In this document: positions 9,777-27,803 of the stretch, piece by piece
Layout: each line of letters starts with the position of its first letter
Numbering within the stretch: the first letter of the stretch is position 1
Source of the DNA: Vermamoeba vermiformis
Lineage: Eukaryota
Direction of reading: 5' to 3'
Assembly: GCA_045837725.1 (NCBI GenBank)
Contig: JBEWZL010000096.1
Coordinates: 62,001 to 126,000, forward strand
DNA length: 64,000 bases
Translations under genes and position numbers: made by a program
The notes under the pieces: generated by a model
Told to the model about the DNA's origin: nothing
The model's input: the letters and a program-made list of their open reading frames with translations, nothing else
The model's database searches: none

Positions 9777-12700
9777 ATGTCTAAGACTCGAAGCGTTTTA
9801 ATATGCTTAGGGTTGGTATTCGCCTTTGCGAATTCACAAGGTAAGATCTCACTAAAATATTGGCTGCGGATGCAGATCCCTTCAAGTCTGTAAATTACAT
9901 GTATGCTAACGATAATTTAATCTATAGCAATCCAATGCGGTGGCTTTTTCGTATCCCCGTCCGGCCTCTACTTCAGTGCCGTCGTAGGCGGTGCTGCATC
10001 CACTCAGCAATCGCTGTTCATTTCTAACGCTGGTCTTACCGACACTACTTTCGCTAAATTTGCTATTGAAGGCCCTGGCGCCGATAGATTCACTATGGAT
10101 GGTCAAGCTCCCGCTCAGATCAACAAAGGTCAAACCCTTGAAATCAAGCTCTCGTTCACGGCTACTGCTTTGGGCGATACTGGTGCAGTTCTCACTATTG
10201 AGACCGCTGTTTCAAACGCTTCAATCGTATTGAAAGGTTTAGGTAAGTGATAAGTTGTCAAAGGACGAAATCGTACTGAAATTCCGGAGTTGATGTACCG
10301 ATCCGCTTACGCTTCGTCCCAGATTCTGCTACGGACAACATTTTTTGTGTATTAATTGCTAACCACTAATTTTCTTAAAGGATTCGCTGGTCTTGGTAAC
10401 GATAAGGAACCTTCTCTGCAACGCATCCTCGATACCATGTCCTTCAATATCAATGTTGGTGATGATGATCCTGCCACTAGCGTCATTAACTCCGATGACG
10501 CCAAGGCAAAATCTGCTCTCCTTGGAAAAGACGAAATTGCTGTGCCCAGATTCGTCAAGTCAAACGCTAAATTGCCTGTTACTCTTACTGTTATCGCCTC
10601 TTTCACTGCCACCTCTCAAAATCCCGCTGCTCTTTTTGGCTACTACCACGCTGGAAATGCCGCTGGCGTCGAGGTGAGTTTTCCATTCCCGATCCAAAAA
10701 TCGTTGCAAAGCCAGACTTACTGATCTGAAATTTCTTCAGGAACTCTTCACTTTGTCTAACCAACCCGAGACTAACGCTCAAGGCCTCTCCAACATCGCT
10801 GTTGGTGCCTTGAGATTCGAGCCTGGTGCTTCTACTTTCGGTTTTTATGCCGGCTTCCCTGCCCTCAACAAGGTTTTCTACAGTGAAGACTCTTTGAACG
10901 CTAACTCTCACAACATCCGCGTCTACAAATTAGCCGATGACGAATACCTTTTCTGCGTTGAAGACGGCTATTTGCCTGATTACAACGATTTGGTCGTCGT
11001 TGCTCGCAACGTCAAGCCTGCTCCCAACATGGTTGTCACTAACTACGGTCAACGCTCTTACCTCACTAACTCCATTGAACGCGGTGTTTTCGACGAGCAC
11101 TTGGGCTTCTCTAGAATCTTGGTCCCCGGCGGTGCTACTTGCTTCGAAACTGGTTCAATCAAGCTGAAGAACTTCGGTACTACCACCGTCACTGTTAGCA
11201 AGATCGAAATTGCCAACCCCGATTTGTGGGCCATCGCTGGCGTCACTTTGCCTCTCACTCTCGCTGCCGGTGCCGAACAAATTGTTACCGTCAACTTCAT
11301 TGCTTCTACTGGTGACAGAGGCTGGAGACAGTCTACTTTGACCATCACTAGCGACGACGCTGGATTTGAAACTCGCGTCATTGCTTTAGGTGGTGCTTAC
11401 ATGCTAGAACAACAAGGTGGTCACGAAAACACTCTCGAAGACTTGTCCTACGCTTGGGGCTACCCTCTGATGTGGGATCACATTTACCTCCTCTCTCAGA
11501 TCGGTAACGGTTGGGCGTTGAGTGAAGATCCTAATCATCCCCTTCACGGTGATGAAGTCCGCTCCAAGTTGTGGAAGCGAGCTGTTGAGCGCAACGACCT
11601 TTACGTGCGCCAAGCTGCTGCTTATCATCCTTGCTGCAACGATGACGTCATCATTCAAGTCGCCGGTTCTGAATTCAAACACAACCACTTGTGGTCTCAA
11701 TCTATCTGGCCCTTGATGATCGACGAGAAGGGCCCCGCTGAAATGTCCATCTTCAACCCAACTCCTAACCCCTTCCCCGTTGTCATCTCCGGTGAAGCTC
11801 ACACTGATCAACTTATGGGCGGCAAATACACTGGTATTCGCACCTTCCCTGTTCGTAACCCCATGGGCCACTTGGTTCGCGACACTTACCTCTTCGTGCA
11901 AGACTTTGCCGCTGCTGGTTGTGGTGACGCTGCTGGTCAAGCCAACTGCGACTTCAACGACAACGTCTACCTCTTCAACAACATGGCCCCTGCTGATGCC
12001 ACCTCCTGGAACCCCTTCGATCAACAAATGGCCCTTGGCAATCCTGCCCTCGTCTTGGAATTCACCCAAGCTACCATTGGCTACAATGACGCTAACAACC
12101 GTGCTACTGGCTTCAATGACATCATGATCAACAGCAGAGACGTCGCCCCTGGCAGCAACTCTCACGACGCTTCCAAGTTGAACCTCGACACCACTGCTGG
12201 TACTCTCACCGTCACTTCAACTGCCACTGATATCTCTGGCAATGACAACGCCAACGGAAACAACCTCATCAACGGTCTCGCGTTGGGCTTTGACGGCTCT
12301 AGCCACACTTTCTCCGTCGTTGCTCGCATCAAGCAATACACTGACGCCGTCAAGGGTGGTATCTTCTTGGGCTTCGACAAGGACACTTTCATCCGCGCTG
12401 CTTTCACTGGTGGCAACAACATTGAAGTTTGGACCGAGAAACACGGTACCGGTCAAGCCACTAACATCCCCATTAAGGCCGATCTCTTGGCCAATGTTGA
12501 ATGGTGGGAACTTCACTTGGCTGCTGACCCTACCGACGGCACTGTTAAGGTTGCCTACAGAGCCATCAACAAGGACAAAACTACCTCTGACTTCAGCGGA
12601 TCTAACGCCTTCACTTTCGAAGCTCCTTACTACGGTCGTATCTTTGACGTGTACAGCAAGGCTGGTATCTACGTCGTTAACGCTCAAGGTCAAAACCCCA

Positions 12701-13023
12701 GCAACGTCGTCTACGATCACTTCTCGATTGTCCCTGGCATGCCTTCTCAAGGCTGCTCTGGTCCCGTCACCACTCCTCCTTTGGGCAGTGGCACTCCTTC
12801 TTCGACTACCACTCCCTCTGGCGACAACTCACCTTCGTCTACTACCACTCCCAACACCAACAACTCGCCTTCTGGCAACACCCCCAATACCATCAACGCC
12901 CCCAATGTTATCTCCAACCCGAACGTTCCTTCCACGAACAACAACCAAGTCTCATCGGCTCAATCAGTAGTTGTTAGCGGCATTGTCATGTTGGTTGTTG
13001 CTCTTATTTATTTGGGCTTTTAA
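9777..13023 (+). CDS. Large cell-surface protein: signal peptide, 2x (ASH/Ig-like + conserved beta domain), ConA-like domain, S/T/P/N stalk, C-terminal GPI or TM anchor
   Basis: Exons 9777-9840, 9928-10242, 10381-10673 and 10741-13023 join in frame. Signal MSKTRSVLICLGLVFAFANSQ. The internal repeat ends in EDGYLPDYNDLVVV and ANCDFNDNVYLF. Hydrophobic end SVVVSGIVMLVVALIYLGF. Strong C/T third-position codon bias. Confidence 0.85.
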
Positions 13024-14538: not shown

Positions 14539-16693
14539 ATGTTCTTTGGAGGAGGTAAGCCGCCACTTTCTTGCCAGATTGAGATCCAGCCCGCTGATAT
14601 TTTTTCTATCTAAAGACGAGGTCGGTGCCTTAGTAATTGATGTTGGTCATTCAAGTACACGAGGAGGATATGCTGGTGAAGATACACCCAAGTCTGTCTT
14701 TCCATCGGTAAGCGCCACACAGAAAAACAAATAATAAATAAAATTTCGTCGCTCAACGAGCGACTTTAAATATTTAAAAATATTTTTAAATATGCACAAT
14801 AACGATTGTGTGTTTATATGCTCCTATAATTTTGAAATAATGCTTTCTAGTATTTTAAAAAAATTTATCGATAATTAATAACGCGGATTCTGAACCGCAG
14901 ATTGCTGGAGTGATCTATTCTAAAGGCAAAGAAGGAAATGTTGGTGAAGGTCCAATGGCTATTGATGACGAATCTGATAAACCTGTCAATCTCAATGCAC
15001 CACAAGACGATCGAATTATTTACACGGGCGACAATGTCAAATTAAGACGAGATAATATGGAGATGGTTAGCCCGTTTGAGAGTGGATTAGGTAAAAATAA
15101 CAACACTATCGTATTATTTTAATATGCCAAAAAATTTGATCCTTAACTCGCGCGCGATCCACACTTCAGTGCGGAAATTTTACATTACATAAAACTGGAT
15201 ATGTCCACACTATTATAAACCTTACTAAGACCGCCTCCATTTAGTGTCTGACTGGGATATTATCGAAAACCTATGGCGTCATACATATTTTGACCGCCTC
15301 CGAGTGGATCCCAAAGAACACCCGGTCGTACTTTCAGAACCGTCATACAACACTACAGAACAACGAGAAAAAATGGCTGAACTTATTTTCGAGAAATTTG
15401 AAGTGCCTGCAATGTTCATTTCTAAGAGCGCTGTTCTCACTGCGTTTGCTTCGGGCAAAGGCACAGCGTTAGTTATTGACTCTGGCAGCGGCATGACTGT
15501 TGCTGCCCCCGTGCACGAGGGCTATGTTTTGCAACGAGGTACGTGCCTTATAATAGCACTTTACACTCCGAAATAACACGTGCTAATTGGGCCCTGTTTA
15601 GCCATTGTCAAATCACCGCTTGCCGGTGATGAGCTGACTCAAGCATTCGAGAAGATGATGATCGAGAAGGGCGTTGAATTCAGACCAAGTTATTCATTCA
15701 CGAAGAAAGAGGCTCGTCCCGGTGATTATCAAATTACACCGAAGAACTTGCCAAACACGACACAAAGCTACCACAGATATATGACACATGAACTCGTGCA
15801 AGACTTCAAAGAGTCAGTGTGCAGAACATACGAAGCTACTTATGACGAAAAGTAAGTGGATCAAAGTGACACGTGATCCGACGGATTTAGTACCGACCTA
15901 ACTCGTCTATTCAGAATACTATCGACTATGGCCACTGCATCATATGAACTACCAGACGCTAAAATCATCGATGTTGGCTCTGAACGATACAGAATACCCG
16001 AAGCCATGTTCAACCCGACCATTATTGAGGTGAGTGTTACACGCAAATTTTTCAACTATGGAAACACTTTTAATATGATTATGCACCCGCCTTCGTAACC
16101 TACTCGGCACCTAGTAACACAATGTACTTACTCATTGGAAACAGGATCGATTCTATTCTCAGCCCAACATCCCTAAAACTGGTCTCGCGCACATGATCCA
16201 CACTTGCGTGTCAAACTGCGACAGTGACTTGCTCATTCGCAAGGACTCACTCGTTAGCAATGTGCTCGTCACTGGTGGCAATACATTGTACCCCAGCTTC
16301 ACTGAAAGATTGCAGACTGAATTGAACGTCATGTCGCCGCACGGATCGGTACGTAGCTCACTTGACCCGACTAAATACTCTTTAGATTTAATTTACACGT
16401 GCGCACGTGCACATTCATTAGTTATATTAAATTTAGATATGGTGACTATTTTTCCAGGCACTAATAAAATTTTTAGAACATGAGATACAAAGTCGTTGTT
16501 GCCCCGACGAACGTAGAACGAAAATACAGGTACCTATCGTGTTTATAAATATAATTCGCATATTTAACGATGAAATAGTGCTTGGATTGGTGGTTCTATC
16601 CTCGCATCGCTTGGTACCTTCCAGCAAATCTGGGTTTCGAAGCAAGAGTACGAAGAACATGGAAAGAGCATCGTAGAACGAAAGTGCCCGTAA
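14539..16693 (+). CDS. ARP4: Actin-related protein 4 (Arp4/BAF53/ACTL6)
   Basis: [16 protein letters not shown]...[23 protein letters not shown]-terminus [26 protein letters not shown]...VERKCP, diagnostic of Arp4. Confidence 0.93.
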
Positions 16694-16759
16694 GATATGT
16701 GTTTGTGATCGTATCTGAGATAAACAAAACAAGTTTATACGACGGAAAATGAAATTTTT

Positions 16760-16814
16760 TTTCCCGCGTTAATTCAAAATCGACGTAACGGCTATTTTTT
16801 TAAACGTTTCCCGC
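16760..16814 (+). promoter_or_regulatory. Two E2F-consensus sites (TTTCCCGC) upstream of kinesin-14
   Basis: TTTCCCGC at 16760-16767 and 16807-16814, about 95-150 bp before the ATG at 16908. Matches the TTTSSCGC consensus. Confidence 0.5.
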
Positions 16815-16907
16815 CTCACTTCCAAAACGGTTGTTTCGTAACGAAATCAATTAATTGTTCGTTCTTGGACTCGATACCACTATCAATAATCGACAACTAA
16901 CTTTAAT

Positions 16908-19622
16908 ATGACAGATTTAAATAAGGTAAGGAGTTTTTTCGGATGCATCTGCTCCGTGCCGTCAATAAGACATTACAATACAAATGATAATATTATTTTA
17001 CATAAATTATTAAAGTTAAATAATAAACATCGTGTTTAATAATATTATGGCCTCTGGTTATTGTCCATAATTAATAATTAAAATCAAAAAGGAAAACGCG
17101 AATCCCAACTCGCTCGCAGCTGGCATCGGTTTGAAGAGAAAACGTGAAGACGATCCTTTTGTTAAAGTTGCAAAGCCTACTTTATCAGCTCAAAACCGCG
17201 TAGCTGCTACTTTGAAAACTGCAGCTCCATCTGCTGCAGCCAAGAAACCCACGACCACCTTGGCCAAGTCCGGTACTATTACTCGTACCACTACTGCCAC
17301 AAAACCAACTGTCGGGTATGTAGATACACTAGTCAATTTAGAATCAAATTTAATCAAGATCGTAGAGCTACTGCACGATCAACAGCCACAAAGCCTTCTC
17401 TTGCTTCTACTGCCACCGAGCGCAGAACTACTCTCGTCGCGGGATCTACTGCTCGCCCTGGTTGGGACGTTAAGGTAAACAATGGATTCCGACAATTGAA
17501 GCAATCTTTTTCAAATCTGAATCCGCGGAATGGTTCTAACTCGGTTGCTTATTAGGGTCGTCTTCAAGATGTTGAAGGTGCATATCTTGAAATGATGGAA
17601 CAGCTTAAGCGTAACAATCAGATCGTTGAGGCTTTGCAAAAGAAATTGAACGAAAGCGAGCAAACAGGTACGCAAGATCTCAGTGCTCAGGAGCTAAAAC
17701 AAATTGCTAATAATATATTATCTATAGTTCAGGTCGTTAGTGTTCAAAAACAGAGCTTGGAAGGCAACTTGTCGCAATTCCACAAGGAGGTCGAGCAATC
17801 CAACGAACGTAACAGAGAACTGCTCAGAGTCATCGATACTATGGACAGCCAGCACAAAATGGAGATTGAGAACTGGCGTATGAAGACCAACTTGTTACAA
17901 AGCAAGCTCGACACCACCGAAATTAACCTCAGATCCGCTCAAAGCGAAGCTGCTGGTTTGAGAGTAAGTTCTTCAAAAAAATCAGCAAAAGCTTAGAACG
18001 TCCGCTAATAATCAACTCATAGTCACAACTCGCTATTGCCGAAGAAAAGAATGCGGATCTGTCTCGTCAATGCGAAGACTTGAAGAACAAGCTCGAACGA
18101 TCCGAAAAGCTGTCAGAAGAGCGTCGCTTGAAGATTAACGACTTGGAGTCTAAGATTGCCGAACAGAAAGAGAATATTAACTACTTGGAAGAGAAGTCTC
18201 GCGCCGACGAAGAGTTGCGCAAGAAGCTGCATAATGCTATTCAAGTACGTTGGATTTGAATCCGGTTTGGAGTTATGACTGTTGATCTAACATTATCATC
18301 TCTATAGGAACTCAAGGGTAACATTAGAGTATTCTGCCGTGTTAGACCTTTCCTTGGTGAAGAGAAGGCTGACGAACTTGTTAAGGTACGTTCGATCCGA
18401 ATCCGCATTCGTTTTCAAAATTCAAAAGACAAAGGACCTGACTTTCATACTAATAGTACGTCTTCCCTCGCTTGGACGACCGTCAAATGGAGATTGTTTC
18501 GTTCATGAACAAAGAAGTTACCGGATGCAAGACCGCTCCCGAGAAGAAACACAACTTCAAGTTCGACAAGGTCTTCCCGCCTACCTCTACACAAGCCGCT
18601 GTTTTCGAAGAAATTTCACAACTCGTTCAAAGCTCATTGGACGGTTACAACACATGCATTTTTGCTTACGGACAGACCGGATCAGGCAAGACTTTCACGA
18701 TGGAAGGCCCTGGTCTAAGCACTTCTCAATCGGAGTCACGTGGTATGATTGCCCGAGCCGTCGAGCAGATCTTCAACACATCATACAAGTTGAAAGAGAA
18801 GGGCTGGGAATACGACATGTTCGTCAGTTTCCTCGAGATCTACAACGAGACTTTGCGCGACTTGCTCGAGAAGCCCAAGAAGGACAGCGTGGCTGATCCC
18901 AAGAAGGACGAAAAGAAGTACGAGATCAAGCACGATGCAAACACTGGCGATACTACGGTGACCAACTTGACCACCATCAAGGTCGACGATCCTGATCGCG
19001 TGCACGATCTGCTCAAGACTGCCAACAAGAACAGAGCTGTTGGCAAAACCAACATGAACGCTCGTTCTTCTCGTTCCCACAGTGTTTTCCAAATGCGTCT
19101 GGTTGGCCGCAACACCGTTACTGGAGAAAAAGTCAACGGTTTGTTGAACTTGATCGATTTGGCTGGATCTGAACGACTTGATTCTTCTGGTGCCACTGGC
19201 GACCGTCTTACTGAGACTAAGAATATTAACAAGAGTTTGGCTTGCTTAGGCGATGTTATTGCTGCTTTGGGTAAGTTCGACTTCGGATCAAATCCGGATT
19301 TACCTGGAGTTCACCTCGAACAATTTCTAATTGCTTACTATTATAGCTAATGGCGATCCTCATATTCCTTACCGCAACTCCAAGTTAACTTACTTGTTGC
19401 AAAACTCTTTGGGCGGCAACTCCAAGACGCTGATGTTTGTAAATATTTCTCCGACTAGCGCTTCTTTGAACGAAACTTTAAGGTACGCATTAATACTATT
19501 ATAATATTAAAGCTCTATACTAATTCAATCGTATGAATAGCTCGCTGCGATTTGCTACCAAGGTCAATGCTTGCGAGATCGGTACTGCCCGCCGAGCGCA
19601 AAAGGTTGAGTTCAAAGAATAA
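16908..19622 (+). CDS. Kinesin-14 (Kar3/Ncd/KIFC1-like C-terminal motor)
   Basis: Basic tail and coiled coil, neck [24 protein letters not shown]-loop [11 protein letters not shown], switch I NARSSRSH, switch [24 protein letters not shown]. Motor domain is C-terminal. Confidence 0.95.
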
Positions 19623-22505: not shown

Positions 22506-23903
22506 ATGCTCAATCGCGGAGGAGTGATAGATTCGCGTCGTGGAGATCAATCTGCCTTACACAACAGTGATTTCGAAGATTTAAGCAGCCTATCATCTGA
22601 AGGCCTAGTAAAATATGCAAAAAAATTAGAAACGAAAATAGACACGACCCTTGAACGATATGACGAGGACGACGAGGATGGCGGAGTCTTTTTTGGCAAT
22701 TTAAGGCAAATTCAAGAATCATTAAATCAGGTACGCGTGCTATATTGATTATTCAGTAGTATCACGGTGATGTATTGTTATTTTGATTGGATCAGGAAAA
22801 ATTTTCTAATTTTCAAATAATTATTTATCTTGATTGGACAAATATCCAGCTAAATATCTCCAAAAAATATCATAATATATTTAACGCTTATTTTAATACG
22901 TATTATCGCAGTTATCAATGGTTGTGGATCAAATGAATGTCAAGGGCGTCACCGCTCATACGGTGCAATATCACAGCGAGAAGTTGCATCATTTTATGCG
23001 CACTTTTCAACGTGTAAAGGTCAGTATTAATGCAAATATATCTTATTCAAATAATTACACTTCACGCAAAGTATTCAAGTTTAATTTGGATCCGCTACAC
23101 GAATTCAAAAAATTTCTCCTTATTTATTTATTAATTATAATTTGTATAGGATAAAGTAGAAGAAAAGCGCAATAGAGAAATATTATTTGGCGATTATAAG
23201 TACGTATTATTACGAAGAAAAAATTAACCCAGGATTTTCTAAATTTCAGTCGTAGTTTGTTTAGTGCTTTAATGACATAATATTAACTACTATTATTATA
23301 GAGGCAAAGATGATTCAGAAGTATCAATTAATATGAAGCGACTGATGGACGAACGATCGTCAATTTACAATTCGTTGAACCAGGCTGACGAGACCTTAGA
23401 GTACGTACTTGACGTAATTTAACGCCAAATTATAATTATTAACGAGTATAATTGAGTATTTCATATTAACTAATCATCGATTTATGATAAACAAATGTTT
23501 TATTTAATTTTCGAAATTGAAACGTAGTTAAAAATTTTCATTCTCGGATCTTTTTCCGAAGTGGCTTTACACCTGTCAGTAATAGTACTAATCTCATTAT
23601 TGATGTATTATAGGACCGCTAATGACGTAAAACAAACACTCGTTCATGGTCGGCAAGTACTGGAAAATAGCGTCAGCAAGAAATTAACGCAAGGAATTGG
23701 TACGAAGCCAAAAATTTTCAGTTTTATTACATTAATGATAATATTGTTAATATTGATGTTGTTTAGGAGGCACTATGAGCGCTGTTAATAATATTTTTGG
23801 AGCAATCAAAAAGTTCAAGTTCAGAAATATGTTCGTGCTTGGCGGTACGATTGCATTTTGTATTTGTTTCTTATTGTGGTGGTGGATTAGTAGCTGGTCT
23901 TAA
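22506..23903 (+). CDS. Golgi Qb-SNARE, Gos1/GOSR1-like, multi-exon
   Basis: AKKLETKIDTTLERY; HTVQYHSEKLHHF; RNREILFG; LMDERSSIYNS; SNARE helix; C-terminal TM KFRNMFVLGGTIAFCICFLLWWW. Confidence 0.75.
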
Positions 23904-24107
23904 AAACACAACTGTAGTAATAAATTAATTTAAAATAAGGCTATTTGCACCAGTTTAATTTACAGAGCACAAGTCATGCAGTTTGATCTTGTTGAGGTTT
24001 TTGAAGACTTTTTAAGCAATAGAACATCCATAAAGAAGTCTACCATGTCATTATCAAAATGATTTAATACTAAAGCTACAATGCTCTTGGGCCAAATGAG
24101 TGCTAGT

Positions 24108-26419
24108 TCAGTCATCCCCTATGTTATCTTCTTTTTCTGTTTCAGCAGCAAAGTCTTCATCTCTTTCATGTGCTTTAATGTACGCCTTCTCACTTTCATC
24201 AAGTGCTGTAATCTCATCAAGGAAATCATTTTCAAGTACATCCTTCTCTTTTTCAAATGCAAACTTTTTGATGTGGTCATTAGCATATAACAAATGCTGC
24301 ACTTGTGGCTCAGTAATTGAATAGCAGTATCCAGTCTCTGAACCTGATAGTAGATGTCATTAGAGTTTGAAAAGTACCAAGTTGACTTACTATTCTTCTG
24401 AAAGAAAAGGAACCCAGTGTCATCAGGATCAAAGCCAAACTGGGTGTGAAAATGCTTGGCATCCCAAGTCCTTGTATTTTTGCAAACACTATTGTAGAGT
24501 ACATTTGAAATATGGAGCAGAACTGCAGACTAACATCAGTTTCTGCCAAATAGATAGCTTACTTTGTTGTTACCTAGGTTTGAATTACATCCATGTGCCA
24601 TACTTGCAAGTCTATAGTCAATGAATTCCTTGATCTCCTGGTTCAACTTCTTCAATGAAGCTGCAAAGATGTCATTGAGATTGTTGTCTTTTCCTTTTTG
24701 ATCTTTGGCTGTCTTGAACATTATGCCAATAAATCTCATGACATATCTGAGTCGTCCTTGTAAGTGAATTTTTGCTACTTGTATGTTTGTTTCTGATATC
24801 TTTGAAAGATCAAAGTACTTGGCCATTATTTGCATTGATTTTTCAGGCTTCACATAAGGATATGTTGCCATTGGTTGTGTTTCAAGATCAAAATAAGTTC
24901 TGTTGTTTGCTCCACCATTTTGTACAAACAAAGAAAAGTCAGTCATTTTTGTACTGGCAACCACAATTTTGCAATGGGGTGAGTGTATTGCATCCAGGGC
25001 AAGTATCTTCAGCAAGTCTCTATCAGCACTTATAGCAGTCCCCTTAATTTGGTAATCTTCAATGAGGTGAGCTTCATCAAGAGCAATCCAAAGGATATTT
25101 CCCAGATTTTTCATTTCTGCATCTATGAGGGCATCCAAATGTCCAGATAACCCAGCTACATCAAGGTTTTTAGATCTGTTTGAGGAGAAAATAAATATCG
25201 AGGCTCAGCTGCATAAAGTATTCTTACATTAAATCCAAAAGCTGTCCTTGAAGATGAATAACACTTAACATGCCACCATTGCTGCACCAGTAGAGCCATT
25301 GTGCAGGTGTTAGATCTTTGCAAACTAATGAAAGAAGTTTCATTCGAGCAAGCCAAAAAGCTTTGCAAAGTAAAGTGCATTTAGTCACAGATCTGCCCTG
25401 AAGATACAGCAGAAGTTTTTTGTATGCCATATCAACCTGTATCAATGGTTAATGGTCAATTATAGTACATACTAGGCTTGGCATCATCCAGTCTTACAAA
25501 ATCTTGACCAACTCTGCCTTGAACAATGTCACCTTGTACATACAACAAATACGAGTTTCTTCCAATGGCATTCAATATTGTGCCTAGTACAAGGACCTAA
25601 GTTTATTGGCGCCGAGTCAAGTTGGTCAGTTTATTGACTTACCTGTTTTTCCTGCACCTGACATAGCTCGTAAGATGTAAATGTCATAAGTAGGGTTTGT
25701 GGCCTCTTTTTTCATGAATTCGAAGACCGGATCTGACACTTCCTGCTCCATAAATCGGATGTCGGCACGTTTGCCATTCAGTGGATCGAACATGATGGAT
25801 TTTTTGATGAATTCATCTCCAAAAATTTGTTTGAGTTCGTCCATTCGGTCTTCTTCACTTTTCTGGAAGTTCGGCAGTTGGATCTCGTCCTTGATCTCTT
25901 GTGTCATCTTATTTATTTCTCGATCGATGGGTGCAAACGGATCTATAACAACAACATTATAATAATTCTATTTCGAAACGACGTGAGGTCCTCCCTACCT
26001 ATTTTTTGCCTTTTCGGATCTGGCTCGTGTAACTGATCAGCTTCATTTCGTTCTCGTTTTTGTCCCTGTATCGCTATTCGCTGCTTTCTTTCCTTCAAAA
26101 CCAATTTATAATCTTCGATCGAAAAGCCCACAGTGTCTAATTAATAATTTTAATTTTAGATAAATAATTAAGTTAAGCGTAAATAGTACTAACCCACAAA
26201 TATTTTGGCATTATTGTTCAAATAATTTTCTAATTTATCTTCGGTATTAATTGCGACGGGCATTTCTCCTGTGTAACCTTTTAGTTGCAAATCTGATTCA
26301 AGTGTCTGAAGTTGCAGCTGCTGTATTACCAATTTCTTTAGATTTTCCAAAAGAGGGGCTTTTATTCGGTCTGGGATGAACGCTCTGCCGTTAAATAGTA
26401 GGATTTTGTATTCTGCCAT
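24108..26419 (-). CDS. Crinkler-like protein: ubiquitin/PB1-like header plus P-loop NTPase; possibly truncated or pseudogenising
   Basis: Header MAEYKILLFNGR...LENLKKLVIQQLQL; Walker A ILRAMSGAGKT; FWLARMKLL...LTPAQWLY; Walker B WIALDEAH; LQGRLRY; ITEP, then an acidic stretch and TGA at 24108. Introns are GT-AG and appear to join in frame. Confidence 0.6.
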
Positions 26420-26952
26420 CCTCGATCAACACACAAATCAAGTGTATTCTTGTTCTTCCCCACGCCTACGACGTGTATTTGTCTTCTTTGGAAGGTCTTA
26501 GTAGTACATAACATATTGGATTGTTATTGTGTTAAATTAGTGCACGCGGTGCAAAATAGTTAAAAAAACGCGCGTAAACAAAATTATTATCGCTTTGTAA
26601 ACGACGAATCATCTCGCACGATTCACTTAAGAATGGTATTGTTGGTGTTGTTTTTTGAGAAAGTATAATCTAGATATTCAATCTTCATTTCAACGCAAAG
26701 CAAGCGAGGAACCCGCTGTTAGAACGTTTTTAAGGAACGAAATAGCATTTACAGATGAGGATTTGACCCAACCAGCGGTAAAAGTTCCAAAAGCGAATTT
26801 CGATCTTCCTCGGATTATTTTAATTCATATGGAAGTTTGCGCTGTCGTGGTTGTTCAATTCAATCGGGGATTGCAAAAAAAGGATAAAATTTTCCTGATT
26901 ACAACACAACTTACTTCAAGATACTGTGCAAACGACAATATTTTATTAAAAA

Positions 26953-27652
26953 ATGGTTGCCGTTGTATTTATTATGGGCGTTAGCGGATCTGGCAAGACA
27001 ACGATCGGAGAAGGACTTGGTACGTATGTTCCGAAAGGCAAAGTCATCAAAATTAACAAAAAATAATTACATTAATTTTTATAAACATGTACCATTCGCG
27101 TAAATTCGGTTTAGCCTGGTTGTTAGGCTATCAGAATTTTGTACGGAGCTAATTATATTTTTAATTTTAATTTTAGCGAATGAATATAACACCCAGTTCT
27201 ACGATGGCGACAACTATCACCCTGAAAGCAACGTACAAAAAATGAAGAACGGAATAGCACTTACGGATGAGGATCGAAAAGGCTGGCTCGACAAGTTGCA
27301 CGAGTTAGCGGCTAATGCTATTAACAACACTTCTTCGCAACAAAAGTTCGTATTCATTGCATGCTCTGCTTTGAAGGTGGCTTATAGAGAACAACTTACC
27401 CGTGGATTTGAACTCGGCAAGCAAGTGTTTTTCGTGCACTTGAAAGGTCCGTTTGAATTGATTGAAAGTCGTCTTCATAACCGCAAAGGCCACTATATGC
27501 CTGCTTCGCTATTGAAGAGCCAATTTGATACTTTAGAAGAGCCGCACAAGGCCGAAGAAGATCCAACCGGTTACATTACAGCTTCAATTGTACCTCCTGT
27601 GAATGAAGTTGTTGCTAACATTAAGCAAGAACTCGAAAAGAGAATTAAATAA
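26953..27652 (+). CDS. IDNK: Gluconokinase (GntK/IDNK family), 2 exons
   Basis: FIMGVSGSGKTT; DGDNYHPESNVQKMKNGIALTDEDRKGWL; ACSALKVAYR; RKGHYMPASLLKSQFDTLE. Confidence 0.95.
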
Positions 27653-27803
27653 AGTGGCCCAGTTCAATGTTGAGTGTTCACATAAACGAGATTTTGTTCG
27701 CTTGATCTGAATTAAATTTTAGAATTCAACGGCAGAATACCACACTGTATATAATTATGTATATATAGCGACTAAAGTATATATTTATTAATAAGACTGC
27801 AGT

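Follow-up and report, generated by a model that had tools for sequence, protein, structure and literature searches.

The distal part of one gene in a 64-kb stretch of the Vermamoeba vermiformis genome (positions 62,001 to 126,000 of contig JBEWZL010000096.1, assembly GCA_045837725.1) has lost nearly all of its CpG dinucleotides. We refer to this whole stretch of 64,000 nucleotides as the window and number all positions within it. The gene, predicted on the minus strand with its coding region at 24108-26419, comprises eight exons and encodes a putative P-loop nucleoside triphosphatase (NTPase) preceded by a charged linker and a short N-terminal header. Its first three exons are normal in CpG content, and the remainder, from the region of intron 3 to the 3' tail, forms a CpG desert that is real, statistically overwhelming and cleanly bounded. 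We favour, with moderate rather than high confidence, the reading that this desert is the footprint of a long-lived and sharply bounded CpG methylation island that lay on the distal 1.76 kb of the gene, in a genome otherwise unmethylated and CpG-rich. It is our inference that 5-methylcytosine (5mC) produced the loss, did so in place and had a repressive role.

Extent and edges of the CpG depletion

A preliminary description of this DNA had counted, by hand, five CG dinucleotides in 23941-25600, where several tens would be expected. A computed count agrees exactly: these 1660 bases (G+C 0.37) contain CG at 24183, 24753, 25199, 25345 and 25552 and nowhere else, against 56.8 expected from base composition, an observed/expected ratio (o/e) of 0.09. 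The value is well outside the normal range, the window as a whole having a CpG o/e of 1.16 at 40% G+C. TG and CA, said to be plentiful, have o/e values of 1.38 and 1.58 in the same interval, and that of GpC is 1.30. The 5' third of the gene and its surroundings are CpG-rich, as had been noted. The 5' part at 25600-26419 contains 34 CG for 29.5 expected (o/e 1.15), and when the window is divided into 128 consecutive bins of 500 bases, the three bins at 24001-25500 have ratios of 0.06, 0.06 and 0.11, while the other 125 all reach at least 0.75. Every one of the window's four longest tracts without CG (570, 446, 335 and 207 bases) falls inside the desert, the next longest being 152 bases.

The bounds of the depletion proved as sharp as they had been described, and only its span needed correction. 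The full CG-poor tract, a feature without strand, extends over 1761 bases from 23849 to 25609, wider than the 23941-25600 noted earlier, and holds the same five CG against 58.8-70 expected (Poisson P(<=5) = 1.8e-19 from composition), again an o/e of about 0.09 with TpG and CpA in excess. Outside the desert, 58,718 windows of 1761 bases hold between 65 and 114 CG, with a median of 83. A two-rate likelihood scan placed the maximum-likelihood edges at 23849-23893 and 25507-25609, and on both sides the edge is a step of under ~100 bases. Between these edges lie exons 4-8, introns 4-7 and the 3' tail of the gene, together with the final ~55 bases of the open reading frame (ORF) of its convergent left neighbour, the last segment of which (23757-23903, plus strand) contains the left edge.

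A CpG-specific signature

The depletion is specific to CpG, is accompanied by a reciprocal excess of TpG and CpA, and is equally strong across exons, introns and untranslated region. Strand-symmetrised odds for CpG are 0.09 in the desert and 1.19 elsewhere, and those for TG/CA 1.45 and 1.03. When CG, TG and CA are omitted, the dinucleotide distance between the desert and the rest is 0.079, within the background of 0.070 +/- 0.031. Some 63-65 CpGs are missing from the desert, set beside a surplus of 30 TG and 52 CA, and restoring one G or C for each lost CpG raises its G+C from 0.366 to 0.403, the value elsewhere being 0.401. The deficit is seen in exons (4 CG for 44.2 expected), in introns 4-7 (1 for 7.0) and in the tail at 23849-24107 (0 for 6.5), whereas in the 5' portion of the gene both exons 1-3 (28 for 26.2) and introns 1-3 (6 for 4.2) have their full complement. 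Taken together, the CpG-specific loss, the TpG/CpA excess, the indifference to coding function and the restored G+C make locus-targeted CG methylation the best reading. The preliminary description had proposed either such methylation or a process like repeat-induced point mutation (RIP); the signature of deaminated methyl-CpG stands, and the RIP-like half of the proposal is not supported, for the reasons given below.

The same figures bear on the idea that the segment came from a virus, or from some other organism whose genome is poor in CpG, and still shows the composition of its donor. Many methylated and silent protist genes have viral closest homologues, according to the portion of PMC12344493 drawn on here, and the NTPase family is itself rare and patchy, with 16 matches in 1.84 billion representative proteins. 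The dinucleotide signature other than CG, TG and CA is nevertheless that of the background, restoration of the lost CpGs yields the G+C of the host, the segment contains four spliceosomal introns whose lengths match those of the host, and both the reading frame and the family homology run on across the edge. No match was found in phage records by blastn, and a search of viral contigs with the single peptide pattern LQGRLRYV matched six stretches, none of them a relative. We regard a foreign donor as improbable.

The gene under the desert

The gene model was built from reading frames, GT-AG introns and a tblastn alignment to P0004, a protein of 831 residues; its splice sites are predicted, without confirmation by RNA reads. 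The frame runs open for 642 codons to a TGA stop and is interrupted by seven introns of 57, 56, 59, 61, 52, 51 and 47 nt, all GT-AG. All exons lie on the minus strand. Exon 1 (26194-26419) encodes the 75-residue header, which is possibly ubiquitin-like, and exon 2 (25999-26136) a linker rich in lysine, arginine and glutamate. In exon 3 (25643-25942) the NTPase homology begins, with 42.7% identity to P0004 residues 53-134, and the exon ends with the Walker A motif GAGKTG; CpG is normal in all three. Intron 3 (25584-25642, 59 nt) contains the last two CpGs of normal density, at 25610 and 25613, and the right edge of the desert falls either here or in exon 4 (25498-25583), the first exon inside it, which is 85% identical to P0004 residues 130-149.

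Exon 5 (25228-25436) is followed by exon 6 (24574-25175), which carries the Walker B-like motif WIALDEAH as well as a QGRLRY motif; the P-loop NTPase module was read in the translation from WIALDEAH and Walker A. The frame of exon 7 (24391-24522) was set by homology to P0004 at DTGFLFF, and exon 8 (24108-24343) encodes an ITEP motif, an acidic tail and the stop codon. The 3' untranslated or intergenic tail beyond it (23904-24107) lies inside the desert and has no CG at all. Of the five residual CpGs, two belong to CGA arginine codons, at 25344-25346 in exon 5 and 24752-24754 in exon 6, one lies in intron 5, and two form a TCG serine codon (25552, exon 4) and a GCG alanine codon (24183, exon 8).

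Judged by database searches, the NTPase family is rare and patchily distributed. HMMER found 16 matches at E <= 1e-3 among the 1.84 billion representative proteins, the best 49% identical and most of them exon-sized fragments. P0004 is the sole full-length homologue, and its tblastn alignment spans the CpG edge, running from ~25868 through Walker A (42.7% over 82 residues) and exon 4 (85% over 20 residues) to DTGFLFF in exon 7. Homology to P0004 on both sides places this edge within the NTPase module, and the earlier suggestion that it might mark a chimeric junction between header and NTPase has to be given up. A scan of metagenomes with a 7-row alignment as query yielded four loci (L001-L004) that carry a 31%-identical homologue at a G+C of 0.41 and a CpG o/e of 0.87-1.12 throughout. 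Their homologous exon contains 15-16 CG for ~15 expected, and six of its six arginines use CGN codons. This normal CpG content indicates that the depletion belongs to the locus or the lineage and not to the family.

Domain and structure searches added little to the classification. In Pfam, neither the six exon translations nor four homologues gave anything above cut-off, exon 1 had no match at E <= 1, and the crinkler domain PF20147 was not detected in the gene; on P0004 the AAA_22 family scored a sub-threshold 17.4 bits against a cut-off of 27. For the header encoded by exon 1, the Atlas leads were the beta-grasp families PB1, TDP-43_N, Ubiquitin_GT-1 and CIDE-N, all under 0.9, and an AlphaFold2 (AF2) model of it was poor (predicted local distance difference test score, pLDDT, 60). 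A structure model of P0004 from a 21-row alignment was also poor (pLDDT 49.8). A sequence search of the PDB with P0004 returned nothing below E 0.2, word-based protein searches with exon 6 gave no scoring match, and Rfam had no match in the window.

The preliminary description had further remarked that the ORF ends in TGA soon after the ITEP motif, and had taken this, with the lack of a nuclease domain, as compatible with a CGA>TGA change. The stop codon is indeed TGA (24108-24110), but it stands 62 codons past ITEP. The ~200 bases left between it and the end of the neighbouring ORF are too few to conceal a nuclease domain, and the C-terminal ~320 residues of P0004 have no counterpart in the window by tblastn. 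A CGA>TGA mutation alone therefore cannot explain the missing domain.

CpG loss, probably under selection

Codon usage follows the desert. Of the 12 arginine codons within it, 2 are CGN (AGA 9, AGG 1), whereas the 5' part of the gene has 9 CGN among 12 and seven background ORFs together have 75 among 112; among four-fold degenerate serine, proline, threonine and alanine codons, NCG accounts for 2 of 74, 7 of 36 and 98 of 643, respectively. Since CGA>AGA is a transversion, beyond the reach of deamination, the shift in arginine codons indicates long CpG hypermutability under selection and not a short burst. The two CGA codons that survive stand at conserved positions: the one in exon 6 encodes R146 of QGRLRY, which like G145 is invariant among 15 aligned sequences, and the one in exon 5 encodes an arginine common to P0004. 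The codon pattern and the intact gene fit a long decay under what would have been purifying selection better than a burst. The arginine content of the protein, 3.0% against 5.0-5.1% in homologues, is only suggestive.

A RIP-like burst would consist of C-to-T hypermutation of a duplicated segment, the edges of the desert being those of the duplication. CpG-biased hypermutation of repeats occurs in some basidiomycetes, and the tract resembles the product of Neurospora-type RIP in being sharply bounded and rich in C>T-type products. Its context, however, is CpG and not CpA, and the classical indices are reversed (TpA/ApT 0.72 in the desert and 0.84 elsewhere; (CpA+TpG)/(ApC+GpT) 1.64 and 1.14). 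A duplicate is absent from the window, and the depth of the best-covering DNA run, introduced below, shows no excess. The 642-codon frame and the seven GT-AG introns are intact, with no nonsense codon, the AGA and AGG arginines cannot be reached from CGN by C>T changes, and the desert is common to strains ~7% diverged. A burst of this kind seems to us very improbable.

The desert in reads and related strains

Reads and contigs from sequencing runs were compared with the window at a likeness threshold of 80%. The best-covering DNA run, X1, which is possibly the source sample, covers 30 of 30 bins at a summed depth of 106-220 in the desert and 67-365 outside it; there is no excess of depth in the desert and no record that fits two places. 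One X1 contig of 557 bases bridges the left edge, and among the listed differences at full depth, 0 of 8 restore a CpG. Two runs from other samples, X4 and X6, provide contigs ~90-96% identical to the window, both inside the desert and on its flanks, with X4 covering 23026-23777, 23903-25588 and 26177-26374 and X6 parts of 23663-26567. In the X4 piece at 25373-25588, which has 15 differences, 0 of 8 among those listed create a CpG. One site in intron 4 (25446-25447) reads TG in the window and in X6 and CA in X4, the two deamination products of a single CpG. Summed over X4, transitions from the window's A to G or T to C number 55, and those from G to A or C to T 39. These are far too few for its 1374 desert bases to carry the ~50 extra CpGs expected at normal density, and X4 therefore shares the depletion. 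It has loose ends at 25588 and 25619 that run collinearly with the window. The presence of the desert in X4 and X6 makes it older than the divergence of these strains and argues against an assembly chimaera.

These comparisons leave very little probability, the least of any explanation considered, to an artefact, whether a chimaera in the assembly or systematic long-read miscalls at methylated CpG behind which the true DNA would keep its CpGs. Miscalls at methylated motifs do occur in nanopore data, and X1 contigs are short and locally unlike the window, for example in indels at 23933-23951. Yet X1 covers every bin at similar depth, with a contig over the left edge and no listed difference that restores a CpG, and the independent X4 and X6 are likewise CpG-poor, X4 being collinear over the right edge. 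Miscalls, moreover, would not yield an open frame, AGA arginines and exactly the conserved CGA codons.

At 25640-25684, X1 contigs match only the ~45 bases that encode Walker A and then continue into unrelated sequence on both sides. These loose ends hint that diverged NTPase paralogues may exist elsewhere in the same organism.

Such paralogues are relevant to a mosaic origin of the gene, in which its distal 1.76 kb, everything from intron 3 up to the transcript's 3' end, would have come from a CpG-depleted, methylated paralogue by recombination or gene conversion. The donor would reside in a methylated compartment of the same or a closely related genome, and the edges would be recombination junctions; the depletion would still have arisen through 5mC, but at the donor. 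The step-like form of both edges, the position of the right edge (25507-25609) in intron 3 or exon 4, a place where exon shuffling would make its joints, the native non-CpG dinucleotides and host-sized introns of 47-61 nt, as expected from a paralogue, and the loose ends at 25640 and 25684 all suit this account, as does the modularity of proteins of the Crinkler-RHS type (CR) described in part of PMC5289972. On the other side, introns account for ~17% of the gene, and it would be only a mild coincidence for an edge to fall in one or next to it. Nor was a donor found: the window contains no second copy, X1 has neither excess depth nor any read with two placements, and the HMMER search returned no close relative, its best match being 49% identical. 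Homology to P0004 is unbroken across the edge, and since the arrangement is identical in X4 and X6, with the X4 ends collinear, any such event would be old. We consider a mosaic origin possible but unlikely, and more plausible than the other alternatives.

Expression was assessed in an RNA run, X8, that carries the same species label. Its depth reaches ~5 on both neighbouring genes, with reads covering the left neighbour up to the bin at 23785-23941, and of the 19 bins on the gene itself one has a depth of 0.47 and 18 have zero. The pattern is weak evidence that the gene is silent. None of the 46 X8 reads is 95% alike to the window, and the species label seems to cover clearly diverged strains.

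A proposed history of the locus, and points that weigh against it

The reading that we favour, a methylation island acting in place, suggests the following course of events. The island would have spanned exons 4-8, introns 4-7 and the 3' tail, and deamination of methylated C to T would have turned ~65 CpGs into TpG or CpA. Purifying selection would have operated throughout, retaining the reading frame and all seven splice sites. Two arginines would have been held at CGA, one of them invariant and the other common to the sole full-length homologue, while the others would have shifted to AGA or AGG. Methylation would never have reached the gene's first 0.8 kb, which adjoins a short intergenic region shared with a divergent upstream ORF.

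A more ambitious version of this history can be imagined, although we consider it doubtful. The island would be a heritable 5mC domain smaller than a gene, kept between the same two boundaries since before the ~7% strain divergence, on an intact and selected gene of a conflict-type, CR-like NTPase family in an otherwise methylation-free genome. It might have served as an epigenetic gate on a potentially self-harmful gene, starting just past the Walker A exon and sparing the promoter shared with the neighbour, a gate that would now be loosening as CpG erosion has reduced its substrate to five sites.

Several points weigh against the methylation reading. The 5mC is itself deduced from composition. 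Such decay has hardly marked the protein: conserved columns of exon 6 show 12 mismatches, only one of them compatible with CpG decay, a change of glycine to serine in VVAGT with the codon context GCC AGT. The evidence from relatives consists of the eight listed X4 differences and pooled transition counts, and because X8 is less than 95% identical even over the neighbouring genes, its silence may mean that the gene is absent from that strain or too diverged in it. The methylation of silent genes in Acanthamoeba includes the promoter, according to the part of PMC12344493 used here, whereas the present gene has an unaffected promoter and first 0.8 kb. Finally, edges that are steps of under 100 bases, the right one in or beside an intron, would fit a recombination junction as well as a chromatin boundary.

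Relation to known systems

Sparse targeting of 5mC in protists is already known as a kind; what is different here is a boundary inside an intact gene that appears to be under selection. In Acanthamoeba castellanii, Cyanophora paradoxa and Naegleria gruberi, as described in the portion of PMC12344493 drawn on here, sparse and repressive 5mC occupies a few percent of genes, mostly silent, its targets being silent, young or laterally acquired genes and transposons. The present locus resembles these protist 5mC islands in that a single gene of a rare family would be the target in a nearly methylation-free genome, with no expression in one diverged RNA run. It differs from them in that methylation is deduced here from CpG loss, in that the 5' 0.8 kb is spared, and in that the gene is intact and looks selected. 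A footprint of CpG loss is not described for the protist islands in section 6 of the same paper.

The arbuscular mycorrhizal literature offers a second comparison. In Rhizophagus irregularis, highly methylated genes include orphan, transposon-related and crinkler-domain genes and amount to 18% of all genes, core genes being unmethylated, as reported in the sections of PMC8647823 considered here. The putative target at our locus is likewise a non-core gene. Set against the 18% of Rhizophagus, a single gene is affected in this 64-kb window, and PF20147 was not detected in it.

Plant and animal gene-body methylation, too, leaves the 5' end free and affects the body and 3' part, as at this locus (~0.8 kb at an o/e of 1.15, followed by 0.09), and there CpG o/e serves as a proxy for germline methylation in the way that we have used it. 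Gene-body methylation, however, marks many broadly expressed housekeeping genes, whereas no other gene in the 64 kb is depleted here and X8 is essentially readless on this one.

The predicted protein may be likened by its layout to CR effectors, which combine a ubiquitin-like (Ubl) header, a P-loop NTPase, a helix-turn-helix (HTH) and a restriction endonuclease (REase) domain (Zhang et al. 2016, as cited in the part of PMC5289972 used here). It shares with them the short N-terminal header followed by a P-loop NTPase, and the extra ~320 C-terminal residues of P0004 sit where the CR nuclease does. It departs from them in having no Pfam crinkler match and no C-terminal domain past the NTPase, and its likeness to named crinklers (CRNs) is one of layout. 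The literature searched here offers no description of such a desert in any gene of crinkler type, and PMC11244446 contains none of five terms for CpG decay.

If the methylation reading is right, a plain scan of composition could find historical 5mC targets gene by gene in protists for which there are no methylome data, and such targets would include intact and selected genes besides dead transposons and viral relics. The locus would offer a natural test case for how methylation boundaries become fixed within a gene, and for the fate of a methylation-silenced gene after deamination has removed nearly all of its CpGs. It would also draw attention to a rare NTPase family that genome defence may have targeted.

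Other features of the window

Two further aspects of the runs concern the surroundings of the gene. At 25860-26206 and 26402-26645, X1 has two differing variant contigs of about equal depth (66-67 and 80-82), whose differences include a skip of 37-38 bases near 26628-26684, in intergenic sequence upstream of the gene; they look like two haplotypes of a heterozygous organism. X8 reads reveal introns at 23197-23305 and 23697-23763, the neighbouring expressed genes lying at 23000-23941 and 26925-27700.

An exon at 18457-19350 belongs to a C-terminal-motor kinesin of the kinesin-14 type (Pfam Kinesin, E 5e-86). Among named proteins, the closest reach no more than 58-60% identity and come from amoebozoans, chytrids and animals, which indicates that the lineage of the window has no close sequenced relative in that database.

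CpG content also varies outside the desert. Unusually high CpG o/e values of 1.93 and 1.99 occur in the bins at 16501-17000 and 23001-23500, the latter at only 28% G+C, and a block of raised G+C (0.47-0.53) at 10500-13000 has values of 0.84-0.91, the lowest of the window outside the desert. This block contains, on the plus strand at 10678-13023, an open frame of 781 codons with no Pfam match, which is overlapped by two long ORFs, one on each strand.

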